In this document: positions 1,910 to 33,845 of the stretch, piece by piece
How the letters are laid out: each line of letters opens with the position of its first letter
Numbering within the stretch: the first letter of the stretch is position 1
The notes under the pieces: generated by a model
Databases searched by the model: none
What the model saw: the letters and a program-made list of their open reading frames with translations, nothing else
What the model was told of the DNA's origin: nothing
Source: an uncultured Selenomonadales bacterium
GTDB taxonomy: Bacteria; Bacillota; Negativicutes; Selenomonadales; Selenomonadaceae
Assembly: GCA_947165185.1 (NCBI GenBank)
Contig: CAMUZL010000001.1
Coordinates: 1 to 40,822 of the forward strand
DNA length: 40,822 nucleotides
Direction: 5' to 3'
Program-made: the position numbers and the translations under genes

Positions 1910-4900
1910 TTATTTTCGCTTCAGTGTTGAGCCGCTGATTGAGTAATCGAATCCGTTGATCTTGAATGTTGTCGCCGTAAAATCTTTCAGCGTCAAAGCG
2001 TTGGCAGTTGAGCCGACCTTGAACGCAAGTTCTTTCTTTGAGCTGTTGTAGCTTGCAGAAAATGCGCCCGTTATCAAAAGCATGTCGGAGTTTTCAAAGC
2101 CGTAGATAACGTCTTTGCCTTCGCCTTCAAAATAAAGGAAAGTGTCCGCGCCTTTGTTGCCCCACAACGAATCGTTGCCGGAGCCGCCGTAGATGGTATC
2201 CGCGCCCGTGCCGCCGACGATCGAATTCGCCGCAGTGTTGCCCGTGATTTTAATCGCCTTCGTGCGCAAGGAAGCGTCAGCGGTTTTGATATCCGAATCG
2301 AGCGTTACGGGGGACGCGCTGGAATTGTCGAGCGTCAACACGTCCGACGAGCCGCCGCTGATAATCGTCGTGAAAATGTCGCCATACGAATCAACCAGTC
2401 GCAAAGTTTTATCTGCGCCATCTTTGACGGTCAAAGTATTTCGTCCGACGACAAATACAACGTCCGAGCCTTTGACGGAGGATTTTGAAATTGCCGCGCC
2501 GAGAGAAATTTTGTCGCCCGTCGTGTAATCGGCGATAACGTCGTTGCCTGCCTCGTAGATGAAAACGTCATTGCCCGCGCCGCCCGTGAGTGTGTCGTTA
2601 CCCGAACCGCCGTTGAGACTGTCCGCGCCCGCGTCGCCGAAAAGTTTATCGTTGCCGTTGCCGCCGAACAATTTATCGTTGCCGGAGCCGCCGTAGATGG
2701 TATCCGCGCCCGTGCCGCCGACGATCGAATTCGCCGCAGTGTTGCCCGTGATTTTAATCGCCTTCGTGCGCAAGGAAGCGTCAGCGGTTTTGATATCCGA
2801 ATCGAGCGTTACGGGGGACGCGCTGGAATTGTCGAGCGTCAACACGTCCGACGAGCCGCCGCCGATTATTGTCGTGAAACTGTCGCCGTACGAATCAATC
2901 AAGTTCAAAGTTTTGCCTTTGCCGTCTTTGATTGTCAAAGTATTTCGTCCGACGGTGAAGACAACGTCCGAGCCTTTGACGGAGGATTTTGAAATTGCCG
3001 CGCCGAGAGAAATTTTGTCGCCCGTCGTGTAATCGGTGATAACGTCGTTGCCCGCCTCGTAAATGAAAACGTCATTGCCGTTGCCGCCCGTGAGCGTGTC
3101 ATTGCCGCTGCCGCCGTTGAGCGTGTCGTTGCCCGCGTCGCCGAACAATTTATCGTTTCCGTTGCCGCCGTAAAGTGAATCATTGCCCGCCCCGCCGTAG
3201 AGCGTATCAGCCGCCGTGCCGCCGATGATTGTGTTCGCCGCAGTGTTGCCCGTGATTTTAATCGCCTTCGTGCGTGAGGAAGCGTCAGCGATTTTGACGC
3301 CCGAATCGAGCGTGACGGGGGACGCGCTGGAATTGTCGAGCGTCAACGCGTCCGACGAACCGCCGCCGCTACTGCCGATAATCGTCGTGGAACTTTTACC
3401 CGCAGAATCAATCAACTTTAAAGTTTTGCCTTTGCCGTCTTTGACGGTCAAAGTATTTCGTCCGACGACAAATACAACGTCCGAGCCTTTGACGGAGGAT
3501 TTTGAAATTGCCGCGCCGAGAGAAATTTTGTCGCCCGTCGTGTAATCGGTGATAACGTCGTTGCCCGCCTCGTAAATGAAAACGTCATTGCCGTTGCCGC
3601 CCGTGAGCGTGTCATTGCCGCTGCCGCCGTTGAGCGTGTCGTTGCCCGCGTCGCCGAACAATTTATCGTTTCCGTTGCCGCCGTAAAGTGAATCATTGCC
3701 CGCCCCGCCGTAGAGCGTATCAGCCGCCGTGCCGCCGATGATTGTGTTCGCCGCAGTGTTGCCCGTGATTTTAATCGCCTTCGTGCGTGAGGAAGCGTCA
3801 GCGATTTTGACGCCCGAATCGAGCGTGACGGGGGACGCGCTGGAATTGTCGAGCGTCAATTCGTCCGACGAGCCGCCGCCGATTATTGTCGTGAAACTGT
3901 CGCCGTACGAATCAATCAAGTTCAAAGTTTTATCCGCGCCATCTTTGACGGTCAAAGTATTTCGTCCGACGATAAAGACCACGTCCGAGCCTTTGACGGA
4001 GGAATTTGAAATATCCGCGCCGAGAGAAATTTTGTCGCCCGACGCGTAATCGGTGATAACGTCGTTGCCCGCCTCGTAGATGAAAACGTCATTGCCGCCG
4101 CCGCCCGTGAGTGTGTCGTTGCCCGTGCTGCCGTTGAGCGTGTCCGCGCCCGAACCGCCTTTGAGTGAATTTGCCGATTCGTTGCCGGTGATGTTGACGC
4201 CCGTCTTAAGCGCGGAAGCGTCGACGGTTTTGACAAGCGGGTCGAAATCCGCAAGATCAATGTCCGTGCCCGTGAATGCAGTCGACGCCGTCAAAATTGA
4301 GCGCGAAGAATTGTAGCTCAAGCCTTCCGGTAACTCGTCGTCGGGTGTGCCGTCCGAATAATTTTTCGCGAAGTAACGAAACACGGCGTAATTGTAAGCT
4401 AAACCGTAATAAAAATGAGCGTAATCAGTAGTAGAAGAATCGTCGTAGCCGCCGACAATTTGCCACAGACCCATGGGAATGTCAGACGGCAATTTTTCGG
4501 GGTAATACAAATTCGCATCCAAGGCCATTTCGGTGAACGCCTGCAAGAAAAGCCTGTCGAGATAATTTGTATACTGGTAGTAGTTGTTGCTGAACCGGGA
4601 GTAGAGACTGTTGGCATAATAACTGTTGACGTCGCCGTTTTTGTCGGTATCCGCAAGCGTATAAAGTTTACTGGCGTCAATATTCAGCGTTAAAGCCGAG
4701 ACACGTCCCACGTCATAGGAAGTGTCCAAACGCATGAGATTACTATACCCAGATGAATCATAAAAACCACCGTTCACAAATTTTATGTCGATTTCGTTGA
4801 CGCTTGCCCGCCCGTCCGTGAAGTTAATTCCGAGCGATTCATTGATGAGATCGAGAGCTTCAGGCAACCACCAGTTGTAAAGATTTTTCACGACGAGCTT

Positions 4901-5323
4901 TTGTTTCGCCAAGTAATTTTCGCCGTCGTAACCGAAATTTTCGCCCGGGGAATTATTCGTGACGTATTGGATATTAACGGTGAGTCCGTTTTTCGTGAAG
5001 GAATTGTATTCGTCGTCGGTGAGTTCTTTGGCGGCGGCGGTTTCGGGAATGATTGTGTCGACGGTTTTGGTTGTCTTGCCGCCCGCGTCCGAGCCGGTGA
5101 TCGCGCCGGTGTCTTTGTTGTTGAGCCGAACGCCGCATTTTTGCTCAAGAAAATCTTGTTGCGAGAGATCGCTTTTCGCGCCTTCAAATTCTCTGAGGAA
5201 AGCGGAATAGCCTCCGCTTATGCCGAAATTTTTTAAAGCTTCGTCGACGGCTTCAGTGCCGGTTTTCGTCGTCTTCGTCAAGGAATCGACAAGTTTTTTA
5301 ATGATGCCGACCGGCGTAGACAT
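1910..5323 (-). CDS. RTX/beta-roll repeat protein, paralog A (1137 aa): N-terminal degenerate gluzincin-like domain plus 5 RTX modules and the family C-terminal module
   Basis: Canonical nonapeptides GGxGxDxUx (LYGGAGNDSLYGGNGNDKLFGDAGNDTLNGGSGNDTLTGGNGND). GGAG at 5333-5336 fits the ATG at 5323 (9-nt spacing) better than the ATG at 5332. No signal peptide. Confidence 0.9.
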   Translation of the reverse strand: MSTPVGIIKKLVDSLTKTTKTGTEAVDEALKNFGISGGYSAFLREFEGAKSDLSQQDFLEQKCGVRLNNKDTGAITGSDAGGKTTKTVDTIIPETAAAKELTDDEYNSFTKNGLTVNIQYVTNNSPGENFGYDGENYLAKQKLVVKNLYNWWLPEALDLINESLGINFTDGRASVNEIDIKFVNGGFYDSSGYSNLMRLDTSYDVGRVSALTLNIDASKLYTLADTDKNGDVNSYYANSLYSRFSNNYYQYTNYLDRLFLQAFTEMALDANLYYPEKLPSDIPMGLWQIVGGYDDSSTTDYAHFYYGLAYNYAVFRYFAKNYSDGTPDDELPEGLSYNSSRSILTASTAFTGTDIDLADFDPLVKTVDASALKTGVNITGNESANSLKGGSGADTLNGSTGNDTLTGGGGNDVFIYEAGNDVITDYASGDKISLGADISNSSVKGSDVVFIVGRNTLTVKDGADKTLNLIDSYGDSFTTIIGGGSSDELTLDNSSASPVTLDSGVKIADASSRTKAIKITGNTAANTIIGGTAADTLYGGAGNDSLYGGNGNDKLFGDAGNDTLNGGSGNDTLTGGNGNDVFIYEAGNDVITDYTTGDKISLGAAISKSSVKGSDVVFVVGRNTLTVKDGKGKTLKLIDSAGKSSTTIIGSSGGGSSDALTLDNSSASPVTLDSGVKIADASSRTKAIKITGNTAANTIIGGTAADTLYGGAGNDSLYGGNGNDKLFGDAGNDTLNGGSGNDTLTGGNGNDVFIYEAGNDVITDYTTGDKISLGAAISKSSVKGSDVVFTVGRNTLTIKDGKGKTLNLIDSYGDSFTTIIGGGSSDVLTLDNSSASPVTLDSDIKTADASLRTKAIKITGNTAANSIVGGTGADTIYGGSGNDKLFGGNGNDKLFGDAGADSLNGGSGNDTLTGGAGNDVFIYEAGNDVIADYTTGDKISLGAAISKSSVKGSDVVFVVGRNTLTVKDGADKTLRLVDSYGDIFTTIISGGSSDVLTLDNSSASPVTLDSDIKTADASLRTKAIKITGNTAANSIVGGTGADTIYGGSGNDSLWGNKGADTFLYFEGEGKDVIYGFENSDMLLITGAFSASYNSSKKELAFKVGSTANALTLKDFTATTFKINGFDYSISGSTLKRK
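2170..4240 (-). repeat. in-frame tandem repeats, period 504-519 bp, about 5 copies (RTX module plus spacer domain)
   Basis: 2171-2358 is identical to 2675-2862 (188 bp, offset 504). 2961-3346 is identical to 3474-3859 (386 bp, offset 513). Confidence 0.9.
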
Positions 5324-5479
5324 AAAAACCATCTCCTTTCAAAATAAACAAACCAAAATCAAGAGTGTAACCTTGCTATAAATCTAATTTATTCGTTGGA
5401 ATTTTTCAAGTGATTAAACTGTGACAAATAGTATCATTTTTTCTGACGGCACTGTCGGCTATTGCCTCGCAAGGTTTGC

Positions 5480-5530: not shown

Positions 5531-8500
5531 TCAACTTTTTACGAGTTTGGTGCCGCTGATTTTGTAATCGTCGCCGTTGATATTGAAAGTTGTCGCCGTG
5601 AAATCGCGTAAAGTAATCGCGCTTGCCGTCGACCCGACTTTAAACGCAATTTGATTCTTTGACTTGTTGTAACTCGCCGAGAACGCGCCGGTAATTTCGA
5701 GCATGTCGGTATCGTCGAATCCGAAGATGACATCTTTGCCGTCGCCGCTTGAGTAGATGAAGGTGTCCGCGCCCGCGTCGCCCCAGAGTGAATCGTTGCC
5801 CGCGCCGCCCCAGAGCGAATCGCTGCCTGCGCCGCCGTAGAGTAAATCGTTGCCGACTTCGCCGAAAAGTTTATCGTTGCCGTTGCCGCCGCGAAGTGTA
5901 TCGGCACCTTTGCCGCCGTAAAGCGAATCATTTTTCGAGCCGCCGACGATTGAGTTTGCCAAATCGTTGCCGGTAATTTGAATTGCCTTCGTGCGTTTGG
6001 AGGCGTCCGCAGTTTTGTACGACGAGCCGAGCGTAACTTTCGCGCTTGAAGAATCGCTGTAAGTGAAAACGTCGCCGCCGAAAATCGTCGAAGACTCTTT
6101 ACCTGCAGAATCAATCAGATTGAGCGTCTTACCCTTGCCGTTTTTGACGGTGAGCGAGCCGCTGCCGATTGTGAAGACAACGTCGGAGCCTTTGACGGAG
6201 GATTTAGAAATCGCCGCGCCGAGAGAAATTTTATCGCCCGTCGCGTAATCTGCAATGACATCTTTGCCCGCGCTGTAGATGAAAATGTCATCACCGTCGC
6301 CGCCCGTGAGCGTGTCGTTACCCGTGCCGCCCGAAAGTAAATCGTTGCCGACTTCGCCGAAAAGTTTATCATTGCCGCTACCGCCGCGAAGTGTGTCGGC
6401 ACCTTTGCCGCCGTAAAGCGAATCATTTTTCGAGCCGCCGACGATTGAGTTTGCCAAATCGTTGCCGGTAATTTGAATTGCCTTAGTGCGTTTTGAGGCG
6501 TCCGCAGTTTTGTATGACGAGCCGAGCGTAACTTTCGCGCTTGAAGAATTGCTGTAAGTGAAAACGTCATTGCCGAAAATTGTCGAAGATTCTTTGCCCG
6601 CCGAATCAATCAAGTTGAGCGTTTTACCTTTGCCGTTTTTGACGGTGAGCGAACCGCTTCCGATTGTAAAGATAACGTCGGCGCCTTTAACGGAGGATTT
6701 TGAAATTGCCGCGCCGAGAGAAATTTTGTCGCCCGTCGCATAATCCAAAATGACATCCTTGCCCGCGCTGTAGATGAAAATGTCATCACCGTCGCCGCCC
6801 GTGAGCGTGTCGTTACCCGTGCCGCCCGAAAGTAAATCGTTGCCGACTTCGCCGAAAAGTTTATCATTGCCGCTACCGCCGCGAAGTGTGTCGGCACCTT
6901 TGCCGCCGTAAAGCGAATCATTTTTCGAGCCGCCGACGATTGAGTTTGCCAAATCGTTGCCGGTAATTTGAATTGCCTTAGTGCGTTTTGAGGCGTCCGC
7001 AGTTTTGTATGACGAGCCGAGCGTAACTTTCGCGCTTGAAGAATTGCTGTAAGTGAAAACGTCATTGCCGAAAATTGTCGAAGATTCTTTGCCCGCCGAA
7101 TCAATCAAGTTGAGCGTTTTACCTTTGCCGTTTTTGACGGTGAGCGAACCGCTTCCGATTGTGAAGACAACGTCGGAGCCTTTGACGGAGGATTTAGAAA
7201 TCGCCGCGCCGAGAGAAATTTTGTCGCCCGTCGCATAATCGGCGATAACATCTTTGCCCGCGCTGTAAATGAAAACGTCGTTGCCATCACCGCCCGTCAA
7301 AGTGTCATTACCTGCACCGCCCCAGAGGAAATCGTTGCCGACTTCGCCGTAAAGTTTGTCATTGCCCGCGTTGCCGAGAATTGAGTCGTTACCTTTGCCG
7401 CCGTAAAGCGAATCATTTTTCGAACCGCCGACGATTGAGTTTGCCAAAGCGTTGCCCGTGATTTTGACTGCTTTCGTGCGTTTGGAGGCGTCGACAGTTT
7501 CAACAGCCGAGCCGATTGTTACGGGCGAAGAAGTTTTGTCGGTGACGGTTAATTTTGTCGGATCTGTCTGCTTGCCGATTACGTTGACAGACGACAAACT
7601 CGCCGCGCCTTGCAAAGTTATCTTACCCGTGCCGACCGTGACGATAACGTCGTTGCCGCTCTTCGTCGAAGAATAATCGCTACCCGAAATTGACAACGTT
7701 GACGTAGCGTTAAAGCCTTCGATAATGTCATTGCCGTTGCCGCTTGAATATTGGAAGATAACTTTGTTGCCGCGATTTTTGATTGTGTCGTTGCCCGCGC
7801 CGCCGATTATTTTTGAGTTGTCGCCGTTGTAATTGCTGTCGTTGGAGGCATAAAAATAGTTCCCCGACTCATGGTAGCGATAGCCGTTGTAAATCAAATC
7901 GTCGTTGTCGCCGCCGTCGAGCACGGAGTTGGAGCCGTGGCTTGTGATTGTGTCGTTGCCGTTGCCGCCCGTGACGGAAAAATTCTTGCCGCCGCGTTCG
8001 CTTTCAAAATAGCCGCCGTTGACGATTATGTCATTGTTATCGCCGCCGTCAACCGAAACCGAATTGCCGTAGTTGTAGACAGAATCATTGTCAGAGCCCG
8101 CGCTTATTAAAACGCTGTTGCCGCGATTTGTAATTTTATCATTGCCTCTGCCGCCGATTATTGTCGAGTTGTCGCCGTTGTAATTGCTGTCGTTGGAATC
8201 GTAAAAATAATTTCCCGATGCGTAGTAGCGATAGCCGTTGTAAATCAAATCGTCGTTGTCGCCGCCGTCGAGCACGGAGTTGGAGCCGTGGCTTGTGATT
8301 GTGTCGTTGCCGTTGCCGCCCGTGACGGAAAAATTCTTGCCGCCGCGTTCGCTTTCAAAATAGCCGCCGTTGACGATTATGTCATTGTTATCGCCGCCGT
8401 CAACCGAAACCGAATTGCCGTAGTTGTAGACAGAATCATTGTCAGAGCCCGCGCTTATTAAAACGCTGTTGCCGCGATTTGTAATTTTATCATTGCCTCT

Positions 8501-30815: not shown

Positions 30816-33782
30816 TCATTTGCTCAGCGTCTTGCCGTTGATGTGATAAATTTCGCCGTTGATATTGAAGGTCGACGAAGAATCAACGCCGCTGAAAATA
30901 ATTTTGCCGCCGCCTTTAACGTTGAGCGTCAGATTGCTGCTTGAAAATGTCGCCTTGGTGAACTTGCCCGTTGAGCCGTCCGCGTTGAGAATTTGCAACA
31001 GATCATCTTCCGCGAAGTCGAAAATTTTATCGGTGCCGCTGTTCGCGAAGTAAACGAACGTGTCGGAGCCGTCGCCGCCCCAAAGTGAATCGTTGCCCGC
31101 ACAGCCGTTGATTGTCGAACCTGCGTCGCCCGCGTAAATTTTATTGGCCTTGGCGTTGCCGGTGATGTCGGTGACGTTGCCCGTTGCGGTGAAATTGGTT
31201 TTCGACGAACCGAGCGTCGCGGAAGTTTTGCCCGCGTCGTAAAAAATTCCGCCGTCAAAAATTTTCGTTCCGTCATTATCCGTAAAGGTGACTGTCGACG
31301 AATCTTTGACGGTGATTTTTTTTGAGCCGACTTTTAAGTAAGTGTTGCCGCTTGAAACGGAGCCGTCCGAAACCGCGCCCGTGATTGATAAGTTATCGTC
31401 CGCGCCGAAATTCATCAAAGTATCGTTGCCGCCCTTCGCCCAGATAAAAATATTTTCGTCGCCGAGGTAAATTTTGTTCGCTTTGGAATTGCCTTTAATC
31501 GTCGCGTTTGAAGTCAAGCCCGCGTTAATCGTGACAATGTTTGAATCCGCCGTGTAATTTTTCGTCGACGCGCTCAAGGTAACCGCCGTGCCCGCCGTGT
31601 TTAAAATTTCGTCGTCCGTGAAAATATTCGCCGTGGTCTTGCCGCCCGAAACGAGAGAAATTTTTTTGCCCGCGCCGTTGGCAATCGTCACTGAACCTTC
31701 GGCAAGGTTGAGCACAACATTTCCGCCCGTGACGGAAAAATTTTCGAGTGACGAACTCAACGAAATTTTGTCGTAACCTGTGCCGTAATCTGTGATGAAA
31801 TCGTTGCCGCCCGCCGTGACAAAGGTGTCGTTGCCCGTGCCGCCCGTCAAAGTCGCGCCCGCCGCGTTTGAAATAATTTTGTTGGCTTTGGAATTGCCGA
31901 TAATGGAAATAATTCCGTCCTCCGCCGTGTAGTTGCTTGCCGACGAGCCGAGCGTTGCGGAAGTTTTTGCCGCGTCGTAAAAAATTCCGCTGTCGAAAAT
32001 TTTTATGCCGCTTGAATCGGCGAACGTGACGAGCGAAGAATTTTTGACGGTGATTTTATTCGAGCCGACTTTTAAATAAGTTGTGCCGCTTGAAACAGAG
32101 CCGTCCGAAACCGCGCCCGCGATTGAAATTAAATCGTCCGTGCCGAAATTGTAAAGCGTGTCGTTGCCGCCTTTTGCCCAGACGAAAACATTTTCCGCGC
32201 CGAGTGAAACTTTATTGGCTATGGAATTTCCGTTGATTGTCGCGTTTGAAGTCAAGCCCGCGTCAATCGTGACAACTTTTGAATCCGCCGCGAAATTTTT
32301 TGTCGACGCGCTCAACGTGACGGAAGTGCCCGCCGAATTAAAAATCCCGTCGTCCGAATAAATTTTGCCGGAAGTGACGGAAATTTTTTTGTCCGCCGCG
32401 CCCGTCAAAATCAACGAGCCGTTATCAAATTCAAAAACAAAATCATCGCCGTTCGCGCCGAAATTTTTCAGCTGAGCCGAGCCGATTGAAATTTTGTCGT
32501 TGCCCGTGCCGTAGTCCGTGACGGTATCGTTGCCCGCGCTCCAAATGAAAATGTCCGCGCCGGTGCCGCCCGTCAAAACGTCGTCGCCTTTGCCGCCGTC
32601 GAGCGTGTCGGAATTTTTTCCGCCCGTGATTGTGTTGGCAAGCGCGTTGCCCGTAATTTTAACTGCCTTCGTGCGCGTGGAGGCGTCAACAACTTTAATC
32701 GCGGAATTTATCGTGACGGGCGAACTTGTCGAGTCTGTGACGGTCAAAGTTGTACTCGCCACAGTGTCGTTGTCCGTGCCGCCGCTCACCGTGCCCGTGC
32801 CGGTCGAGTTGGCAGCCTGATAAGCAAGGTAGCGCAGGAAAATATATCCGCCCGCGTAACTCGCCGAAGTGACGCCCGAAACGCTGACGGTGTTCGTGTT
32901 CAAGACAATCGCTTGACTAAGTTTCGTTGACGAGCCTGCCAAAGTTTTCAGCGAAGCCGAGCGCGTGTCGTCGATGCCGTGCGTTAAATCCGCCATACCT
33001 TCCTTGAGGAACGCGGGCAGATAATCAAACCAATCGATATTCGCACGCATGACGGCATGGGTCAATTCGTGCGCGATTGTTCGGTCGAGATATTTTTGCC
33101 CGTTGTTCGACTCGCCGTCTTCGCCCGAAACATTTCCGTAATAGTACGTGTTGATGTGGAGCTTTAAATCGTTCGTGGATTTCTGCGCGTTGCCGGGACC
33201 GCCCCACGTCACCGCCAAAGAGCCCGCGCCTTCGTCGGCAAGGACAACCCAAAGCGTTTTGGTGACGGCGGAACTTTTGGAAGTGAAGCTGTAATTTTCA
33301 CCGTAACTTTCGGCAATGAGGTCAAGTCCGCCCGCAAGCCACCACGTGTAAAACGACTGCCAAATATAAATTTCGTTGTCGCTCAAGTCGCTGAAACTTC
33401 TTGCAACGGTTTTGCCCTCGGAATCGACTTGCCCCAGCTTGACGGTCAGTCCGTTCGTCGTGAAAGAATCGCCCGTGAAATTTATAAGCGCGCTGCTTTC
33501 GGGCACGATTGATTCAGCAGTCTTGACAGTCGAGCCGCCCGCGTCCGCGCCGGTTATCGCGCCCGTGTCGGAGTTGTCCAAAATTATTCCGCAGTAATTT
33601 CGCAAAAAATTATCGGCACTGCCCGCAGTTTTGCAATCGCTCAAAAGTTGCGCACGAAAATCCGCGTAGCTTGAAAAATTCGAGACAGCCGAAATCGCCG
33701 CGTCCAAAGCGTCTTCGCCTTTTTCGGTCGTCGTGTCCAAAATCGCCATGAAATTTTTTATAACGTCCTGTTGAGTCGCCAT
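30816..33782 (-). CDS. RTX-family paralog E (988 aa): N-terminal HExxH gluzincin-like domain, short RTX block, beta-rich repeats and the family C-terminal module
   Basis: HELTH at 33057-33071 followed by EGMAD. GGKNSDTLDGGKGDDVLTGGTGADIF nonapeptides. GGGAGGGA RBS before the ATG at 33782. Confidence 0.88.
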   Translation of the reverse strand: MATQQDVIKNFMAILDTTTEKGEDALDAAISAVSNFSSYADFRAQLLSDCKTAGSADNFLRNYCGIILDNSDTGAITGADAGGSTVKTAESIVPESSALINFTGDSFTTNGLTVKLGQVDSEGKTVARSFSDLSDNEIYIWQSFYTWWLAGGLDLIAESYGENYSFTSKSSAVTKTLWVVLADEGAGSLAVTWGGPGNAQKSTNDLKLHINTYYYGNVSGEDGESNNGQKYLDRTIAHELTHAVMRANIDWFDYLPAFLKEGMADLTHGIDDTRSASLKTLAGSSTKLSQAIVLNTNTVSVSGVTSASYAGGYIFLRYLAYQAANSTGTGTVSGGTDNDTVASTTLTVTDSTSSPVTINSAIKVVDASTRTKAVKITGNALANTITGGKNSDTLDGGKGDDVLTGGTGADIFIWSAGNDTVTDYGTGNDKISIGSAQLKNFGANGDDFVFEFDNGSLILTGAADKKISVTSGKIYSDDGIFNSAGTSVTLSASTKNFAADSKVVTIDAGLTSNATINGNSIANKVSLGAENVFVWAKGGNDTLYNFGTDDLISIAGAVSDGSVSSGTTYLKVGSNKITVKNSSLVTFADSSGIKIFDSGIFYDAAKTSATLGSSASNYTAEDGIISIIGNSKANKIISNAAGATLTGGTGNDTFVTAGGNDFITDYGTGYDKISLSSSLENFSVTGGNVVLNLAEGSVTIANGAGKKISLVSGGKTTANIFTDDEILNTAGTAVTLSASTKNYTADSNIVTINAGLTSNATIKGNSKANKIYLGDENIFIWAKGGNDTLMNFGADDNLSITGAVSDGSVSSGNTYLKVGSKKITVKDSSTVTFTDNDGTKIFDGGIFYDAGKTSATLGSSKTNFTATGNVTDITGNAKANKIYAGDAGSTINGCAGNDSLWGGDGSDTFVYFANSGTDKIFDFAEDDLLQILNADGSTGKFTKATFSSSNLTLNVKGGGKIIFSGVDSSSTFNINGEIYHINGKTLSK
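31000..32480 (-). repeat. diverged in-frame duplication, period 738 bp (246 aa)
   Basis: gtcgacgcg landmarks at 31564 and 32302. Protein segments (A/S)VTLSASTKN(F/Y)..DS..VTI(D/N)AGLTSNATI.GNS...SSGxTYLKVGSxKITVK occur twice. Confidence 0.75.
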
Positions 33783-33805
33783 AGCCGTTCCCTCCCGAAA
33801 AACTT

Positions 33806-33845
33806 TGCTAACAGCTGAAAGCTAAAAGCTGAAAGCTGAAAGCTA
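33806..33845. repeat. heptanucleotide tandem repeat (AGCTRAA) x5.7 in the 5' leader of paralog E
   Basis: The sequence reads tgctaac agctgaa agctaaa agctgaa agctgaa agcta. Confidence 0.8.

Follow-up and report, generated by a model that had tools for sequence, protein, structure and literature searches.

Flagellinolysins are gluzincin metallopeptidases that reside in the hypervariable region (HVR) of flagellins and constitute family M101 of MEROPS (PMC7643111). Two of them, FliA(H) of Clostridium haemolyticum and HgrFlaMP of Hylemonella gracilis, are active Zn/Ca-dependent proteases (PMC5595980, PMC7643111). In FliA(H) the zinc ligands are H233, H237 and E262, the general base is E234, the 'basement' residue is A265, and the E234A mutant was inactive; the closest structural template for the family is M9, with approximately 13% identity (PMC5595980). 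The hosts known so far include Selenomonas and Anaerovibrio (supplement of PMC5595980). The 2017 survey was restricted to flagellin N-HVR-C architectures, and the ancestral protease was stated in it as undetermined (Eckhard et al. 2017, PMC5595980). Here we describe a relative carried by gene E, which lies in a stretch of 40,822 nucleotides from an uncultured rumen Selenomonadales bacterium (assembly GCA_947165185.1, contig CAMUZL010000001.1, positions 1 to 40,822 of the forward strand; hereafter the window). Gene E is one of five RTX paralogs (A to E) in the window, all encoded on the minus strand. It is likely that the N-terminal ~326 residues of its product are a circularly permuted gluzincin of the M101 flagellinolysin family and that gene E encodes a secreted zinc metalloprotease. 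In the literature searched flagellinolysin appears only as an insert in flagellin; no non-flagellin, RTX-borne or permuted flagellinolysin was found, nor any description of a gluzincin on an RTX protein, which agrees with an earlier sequence-only reading of this DNA that regarded a gluzincin head on an RTX tail as unusual. The peptidase family and the type of carrier were already known; new are their combination, the permuted topology and the extent to which the family has expanded.

Residues 1-331 of gene E matched the NCBIfam flagellinolysin model NF033876 with E = 7.3e-46 and 157.3 bits (curated equivalog cutoff 205 bits, see below), and the catalytic half is 39-44% identical to named flagellinolysins. 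With this match to a curated profile, 219 close homologs and the 1385 cluster representatives described below, the domain greatly exceeds what chance would produce. Its strong match to the flagellinolysin model, in two parts, assigns it to the existing family M101 and neither to M4 nor to a new family. The sequence-only reading had correctly recognized an N-terminal domain of ~330 amino acids (~326 by our delimitation) with HELTH and EGMAD ahead of RTX repeats, the latter being matched by Pfam HemolysinCabind with 40.9 bits against a cutoff of 23. It had also called the domain thermolysin-like and possibly the first of a new peptidase family; the latter idea is overturned by the homology to M101, and the former does not extend beyond the motif. 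The HELTHAV sequence with E-x-x-x-D 19 residues later resembles the thermolysin active site, and this speaks for the idea that the RTX tail carries an M4-type head or the first member of a new gluzincin family. The same explanation could draw on the Pfam search of the domain, which gave just a sub-threshold match to Peptidase_MA_2 (E = 1.3e-3), and on the PDB sequence searches with the domain and then with the family profile, which yielded nothing meaningful and no thermolysin chains. Since Pfam returned no match of gene E to Peptidase_M4, Peptidase_M4_C or M9 at E<=1, and in view of the two-part flagellinolysin match and the identity of the catalytic half to named flagellinolysins, this explanation is largely refuted already, and we regard it as very improbable.

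The two parts of the match lie in swapped order. Amino acids 5-115 alone matched positions 219-317 of NF033876 (E = 2.9e-14), and amino acids 138-330 alone matched positions 43-221 (E = 1.2e-32). BLAST comparison of the gene E domain with P0256, an Anaerovibrio protein named 'flagellinolysin' by NCBI, gave two swapped high-scoring segment pairs, in which amino acids 153-330 aligned to 4-169 and 22-95 to 195-270; P0256 and P0259 themselves each showed a single collinear profile match above the NF033876 cutoff. In the canonical flagellinolysin the order is flagellin-N, catalytic half ('cat'), helical half with the DTGAITG motif ('seg'), flagellin-C, whereas in gene E the helical/DTGAITG half comes first. 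The cat-first order was seen in P0372, P0374 and P0408 (flagellin-N, cat, seg and, where present, flagellin-C), and the published position of the FliA(H) HExxH, residue 233, appears consistent with it. Because both halves match the profile separately and in swapped order, the gene E domain is, as judged from these alignments, circularly permuted relative to the canonical unit of flagellinolysins, a feature that had not been noticed in the earlier reading.

The permuted (seg-cat) order is not exclusive to RTX proteins. It was also found in two flagellins of Selenomonadales, P0229 and the product of L081:4533..6308 (a Schwartzia metagenome-assembled genome (MAG), JAFSWT010000030.1), both with the order flagellin-N, seg, cat, flagellin-C. 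These proteins share the permuted order with gene E and are 41-44% identical to it, but they pass the NF033876 cutoff and have the unit embedded between flagellin N and C. The full open reading frame (ORF) at L081:4533..6308 encodes 591 amino acids, and the database entry P0258 (435 aa, 'flagellin') is a shortened gene call of it; directly upstream lies a gene (2973-4496) for a flagellin with a VWA domain in the variable region. Other family members have more than one unit or parts thereof: P0121-P0124 (P0123 among them) contain two complete tandem units, seg-cat-seg-cat, and P0091 is a hybrid, seg-cat-seg'-flagellin C, that lacks flagellin N. P0128 has partial peptidase units in a scrambled series. 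The tandem proteins offer a route to permutation, and together with P0128 and the hybrid P0091 they look like intermediates of permutation by duplication.

The catalytic residues expected of a gluzincin are all present in gene E. FliA(H) was not aligned directly but compared by way of its published residue numbers, of the NCBIfam profile and of flagellinolysins recovered by our searches; in this comparison H238, E239 and H242 of the HELTH motif correspond to H233, E234 and H237, and the spacing between E261 and A264 (Glu+3) is that between E262 and A265. The unit shares with FliA(H) and HgrFlaMP, to which it is homologous, the HExxH, the downstream Glu and the Ala at E+3; the distance from the second His to the Glu differs, being 18 residues in gene E and 24 in FliA(H). 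The count between H242 and E261 is exactly 18 residues. The assignment of a gluzincin-type ligand arrangement (HExxH, Glu 19 residues on) in the sequence-only reading was borne out, with Ala at E+3 in addition. The coordinates given there for IAHELTHAVM, 33057-33071, fit the five codons of HELTH and not the whole string. The sequence-only reading had also set the domain apart from serralysin-type metzincins, and indeed the sequence following the HExxH reads HELTHAVMRAN, in which the third His and the required Gly of metzincins are not there. By homology, the zinc would be held by two ligands on one helix, H238 and H242, and by a third on the following helix, E261; E239 would act as the general base and A264 would sit under the metal, and the chemistry would be that of a Zn-dependent endopeptidase as in FliA(H) and HgrFlaMP. 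Conservation of these residues was checked in an alignment of 252 domains: the full H-E-H-E set was found in 245 and was incomplete in the other seven (~3%). H238, E239 and H242 were each kept in 247 domains, E261 in 246, A264 in 237 and G262 in all.

The CGIxLxNxDTGAITGxDAGG..K motif, which had been noted as unrecognized, is real and conserved, but it is already part of the flagellinolysin profile (positions 219-317), and a helical segment with the motif N-x-D-T-G-A-I-x-G-x-D-A-x-G is common to flagellinolysins and gene E. In the 252 domains C64 was retained in 251, D72 in 252, G74 in 251, D80 in 247 and K87 in 248; C64, D72 and K87 vary even less than the zinc site. In P0408, a distant canonical flagellinolysin, NLTNSDTGAIGGADADGG is retained without the Cys, which is near-invariant in Selenomonadales. 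The position of C64 after the helical bundle recalls the latency mechanism of matrix metalloproteinases (MMP), and a cysteine switch was considered; it was dropped, as the Cys is absent from P0408 and kept in the catalytically dead paralog A. The resemblance of 'DTGA' to the aspartic-protease signature was read as coincidence, the motif being in a predicted loop after four helices and not in a beta-rich fold. A Ca2+ site or an element of the substrate cleft are guesses for the function of the DTGAITGxDAGG loop.

The peptidase unit is also present in paralogs A (N-terminal) and B (internal) and absent from C and D; the motif occurs in B and, as CGVRLNNKDTGAITGSDAGGKTTK, intact in A. In paralog A all four catalytic residues have been replaced with the seg motif kept, and its NCBIfam flagellinolysin match comes through the seg part only; paralog A is on these grounds a pseudo-peptidase, and the half with the motif may serve some purpose other than catalysis. 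This raises the question of whether the domain of gene E could itself be non-enzymatic, with a binding or structural role at the head of an RTX adhesin or surface-layer protein, as the maintenance of an intact seg motif in paralog A and in the ~3% of the family without catalytic residues, and the greater invariance of the seg motif over the zinc site, would allow. A comparison with the syntenic ortholog at locus L001 (Selenomonadaceae RGIG5694, from sheep), which likewise stands beside an acetolactate synthase small-subunit gene, bears on this point. The two domains are ~90% identical at the protein level (91% by tblastn), with a ratio of nonsynonymous to synonymous substitution rates (dN/dS) of 0.23, and the peptidase domain of gene E is under purifying selection. 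Both gene E and the ortholog keep H238, E239, H242, E261, G262 and A264, and considering also the H-E-H-E set in 245 of the 252 domains, a non-enzymatic head is improbable.

An AlphaFold2 model of amino acids 1-331, built with a 21-sequence alignment, had a mean predicted local distance difference test score (pLDDT) of 87.8 and a predicted template modelling score (pTM) of 0.89, the latter indicating that the two halves form one compact body. The order of elements is four N-terminal helices (amino acids 4-17, 22-33, 39-52 and 56-64), a low-confidence loop (pLDDT 53-62) that contains the most conserved motif, a beta-hairpin (strands within 106-127), a long helix, a beta-sheet, the HExxH helix (232-248), the Glu helix (257-268) and three further helices.

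The remainder of the protein is of RTX type. Matches to GGxGxD occur at amino acids 396, 405, 442, 647 and 902, and BLAST revealed an internal duplication of ~225 residues, amino acids 455-673 being 63% identical to 696-920. At their C-termini all five paralogs can be aligned (..TLKDF..T.F.ING..Y.ISG..L.K), and the homolog P0001 has the same ending. Gene E begins with MATQQ.., the same start as in homologs; no signal peptide was visible there by eye, no signal-prediction program being applied, and the N-terminus forms helix 1 of the fold. An operon for an ATP-binding cassette (ABC) protein, an HlyD-family protein and a C39-ABC protein lies directly upstream of a family member at locus L060. 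The lack of a visible signal peptide, the C-terminal module common to the five paralogs and the operon beside a relative suggest type I export, most likely by a system encoded elsewhere in the genome. Adjoining type I genes were considered as a general rule, and this was rejected: in a motif scan of 82 loci ABC ATPases were near few, and the only real operon was that of L060. On the presumed route the C-terminus would exit first, the RTX part would fold on extracellular calcium and the protease head would emerge last, in contrast to the flagellar type III export of flagellinolysins. The carrier would be a Ca2+-binding RTX beta-roll protein instead of a flagellin, the unit preceding the RTX repeats rather than lying between Flagellin_N and Flagellin_C.

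Candidate substrates are external proteins, as for the characterized flagellinolysins, surface structures of other cells, or the RTX paralogs themselves. The last option corresponds to an active protease with a job internal to the system, namely the processing, release or maturation of RTX proteins, whether of its own chain (in cis) or of paralogs A to D. The location of the domain at the N-terminus of, or inside, giant RTX proteins clustered at one locus, the presence of dead copies with the seg motif alongside live ones, and the two tandem copies in some proteins would all be compatible with such a job. Nevertheless, the characterized flagellinolysins have broad specificity and act on external substrates, casein and peptide libraries (PMC5595980, PMC7643111), and forms of ~370 amino acids without the RTX part exist, and we consider an internal role unlikely.

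Several observations weigh against a secreted, permuted M101 peptidase. The NF033876 score of gene E is below the equivalog cutoff; the profile positions of the flagellin flanks are unmatched, and the permutation divides the match into two parts. When the model was compared with the PDB by Foldseek there was no match at E<=1e-3, and no solved structure was found for the flagellinolysin family, so that the fold assignment depends on homology to a family for which no solved structure was found. The best Foldseek leads were weak and all zincins: MMP-11 (probability 0.92), leishmanolysin, the M1 aminopeptidases ERAP1 and APN, and BoNT/E; thermolysin (M4) and M9 were not among the top 50 matches listed. 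The permutation is shown at the level of sequence only. Finally, there are no type I secretion genes in the window, and they were adjacent in one of 80 related loci.

Serralysins (M10B) resemble gene E in having an N-terminal zinc protease and a C-terminal RTX beta-roll and in the presumed type I route. They differ in the protease part, which is a metzincin with HExxHxxGxxH and a Met-turn, whereas gene E has a Glu ligand, and the protease parts are not homologous; NCBIfam serralysin matches on the window paralogs were confined to the RTX part. Gene E has its set of gluzincin ligands in common with clostridial collagenases (M9) and thermolysin (M4) but lacks a Pfam match to either (see above); two distant flagellinolysin matches carry precomputed Peptidase_M9 annotations.

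To determine the extent of the family, 1.84 billion cluster representatives were searched with the profile, yielding 1385 clusters (50% identity) at E<=1e-3 and 709 at E<=1e-30. A scan of species-representative genomes found 283 loci with the domain; the best 80 of these were all from Negativicutes, almost all from rumen Selenomonadaceae or Quinella MAGs, with several genomes holding 3-5 loci each. The peptidase unit forms a large, multi-copy family, nearly all of it in rumen Selenomonadales, dead copies included. A survey of ~250 family proteins placed the unit at the N-terminus in 188 of them, at the C-terminus in 33 and at an internal position in 30; at least three RTX motifs were present in 125, and flagellin parts in only two. 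That gene E might be a degraded or chimeric flagellin, a remnant of a flagellinolysin exported by the flagellar apparatus, could be proposed from the name 'flagellin' given by NCBI to the close relative P0101 and from hybrids such as P0091. This is scarcely credible given the rarity of flagellin parts in the family, the RTX-type conserved C-terminal module of gene E, and the fact that neither Pfam nor the domain survey detected a flagellin N or C domain in it. Stand-alone forms of ~370 amino acids without RTX repeats (P0071, P0096, P0099, P0103, P0113, P0119 and others) end in a conserved acidic tail, ..ENNFI.QDSLS.ILPEKS.. (alignment A1, columns 360-446).

A small, unrooted neighbour-joining tree was built on the re-ordered halves with 100 bootstraps. 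Cat-seg flagellins formed a clade in 92 of the 100 replicates and seg-cat flagellins a clade of their own in 91, apart from the former, whereas all flagellin-borne domains never appeared as one clade (0/100); P0091 grouped beside the non-flagellin member P0139. Since the flagellin-borne domains are not one clade and P0091 stands beside P0139, the tree suggests, and only suggests, repeated exchange of the peptidase unit between carriers. A tentative reading, to which we give somewhat less than even chances, is that M101 in Selenomonadales is a mobile module that passes, through tandem duplication and circular permutation, between RTX proteins (type I) and flagellins (flagellar type III), the RTX-borne pool being the free-standing source of the flagellinolysin insertion or its closest surviving relative.

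For the origin of flagellinolysin, the large non-flagellin branch provides a concrete comparison set, with both orders, tandem intermediates and flagellin hybrids in one bacterial order. The natural permutation series shows by example how one domain is fitted, through circular permutation, for fusion at a terminus or for insertion within a protein. The permuted M101 peptidase would be a second, non-metzincin kind of RTX-linked protease beside the serralysins. As presumably secreted enzymes with several copies per genome, the family members are candidates for a part in the extracellular proteolysis of rumen Selenomonadaceae; many of them now bear the annotation 'hypothetical protein' or, erroneously, 'flagellin'. 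The positions of the features of gene E and of the related paralogs are in Table 1.

Table 1. Positions in the window of gene E, its parts and the other RTX paralogs
Feature	Residues	Position	Strand	Description	Basis
Gene E	1-988	30816..33782	minus	988 aa: permuted M101 peptidase unit (likely), Ser/Thr-rich linker, RTX/beta-roll repeats, conserved C-terminal module	ORF list, Pfam HemolysinCabind, NCBIfam flagellinolysin, L001 syntenic ortholog
Ribosome-binding site GGGAGGG		33790..33796	minus	7 nt 5' of gene E ATG	read from sequence
'seg' half of peptidase unit	1-120	33423..33782	minus	four helices, conserved loop, beta-hairpin	NF033876 match and AlphaFold model
Signature motif	64-87	33522..33593	minus	C64-G-I-I-L-D-N-S-D72-T-G-A-I-T-G-A-D80-A-G-G-S-T-V-K87, = CGIILDNSDTGAITGADAGGSTVK / CGIILDNSDTGAITGADAGG...K	conservation across 252 domains
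'cat' half of peptidase unit	121-326	32805..33422	minus	beta-sheet, HExxH helix, Glu helix, C-terminal helices	NF033876 match and model
HELTH (H238, E239, H242)	238-242	33057..33071	minus	two predicted zinc ligands and general base	conservation; correspondence to FliA(H)
EGMAD	261-265	32988..33002	minus	E261, predicted third zinc ligand; A264, predicted 'basement' residue	conservation; FliA(H) spacing
Ser/Thr/Gly-rich linker	327-372	32667..32804	minus		composition; end of model pLDDT <50
RTX/beta-roll region	373-928	30999..32666	minus		Pfam HemolysinCabind, GGxGxD matches, BLAST internal repeat
C-terminal module, ~60 aa		30819..30998	minus	putative type I secretion signal	common to all five RTX paralogs
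Paralog A		1910..5332	minus		
Paralog A unit	4-362 of 1140	4247..5323	minus	H,E,H,E -> Q,A,E,M; seg motif intact	alignment A2, hidden Markov model column read-out 'QAEM'
Paralog B		5531..11032	minus		
Paralog B unit	304-610 of 1833	9203..10123	minus	permuted, HEMTH and EGMAD intact	NCBIfam flagellinolysin E = 9.9e-20
Paralog C		11229..16748	minus		
Paralog D		16974..18386	minus		

Some further observations were made on the paralogs and on neighbouring sequences. Paralogs B and C are only ~48% identical overall, yet their last 70 residues are the same save the final one, a pattern suggestive of recent gene conversion affecting the C-terminal modules of these neighbouring genes. The ORF of paralog D (470 aa) has an in-frame stop (MADINNT*) ahead of it, together with a frameshift that leads into the ORF 17933..18463 (window 16974-18463, minus strand); probably paralog D is a pseudogene, or a longer RTX gene is interrupted by an error of sequencing or assembly. 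Gene E and the acetolactate synthase small-subunit gene start divergently, 108 nt apart, and the gap between them contains a short tandem repeat (33807-33845) of GCTAAAAGCTGAAA in 2.7 copies, or of a 7-nt period in 5.6 copies, which could be a regulatory or slippage-prone element. Between a pyrroline-5-carboxylate reductase-like gene and the large ORF 37023..39383 lie two overlapping short ORFs of similar sequence on the plus strand (36437-36697 and 36681-37007); the second matches Pfam DUF805, and the two look like a tandem pair of small membrane proteins.

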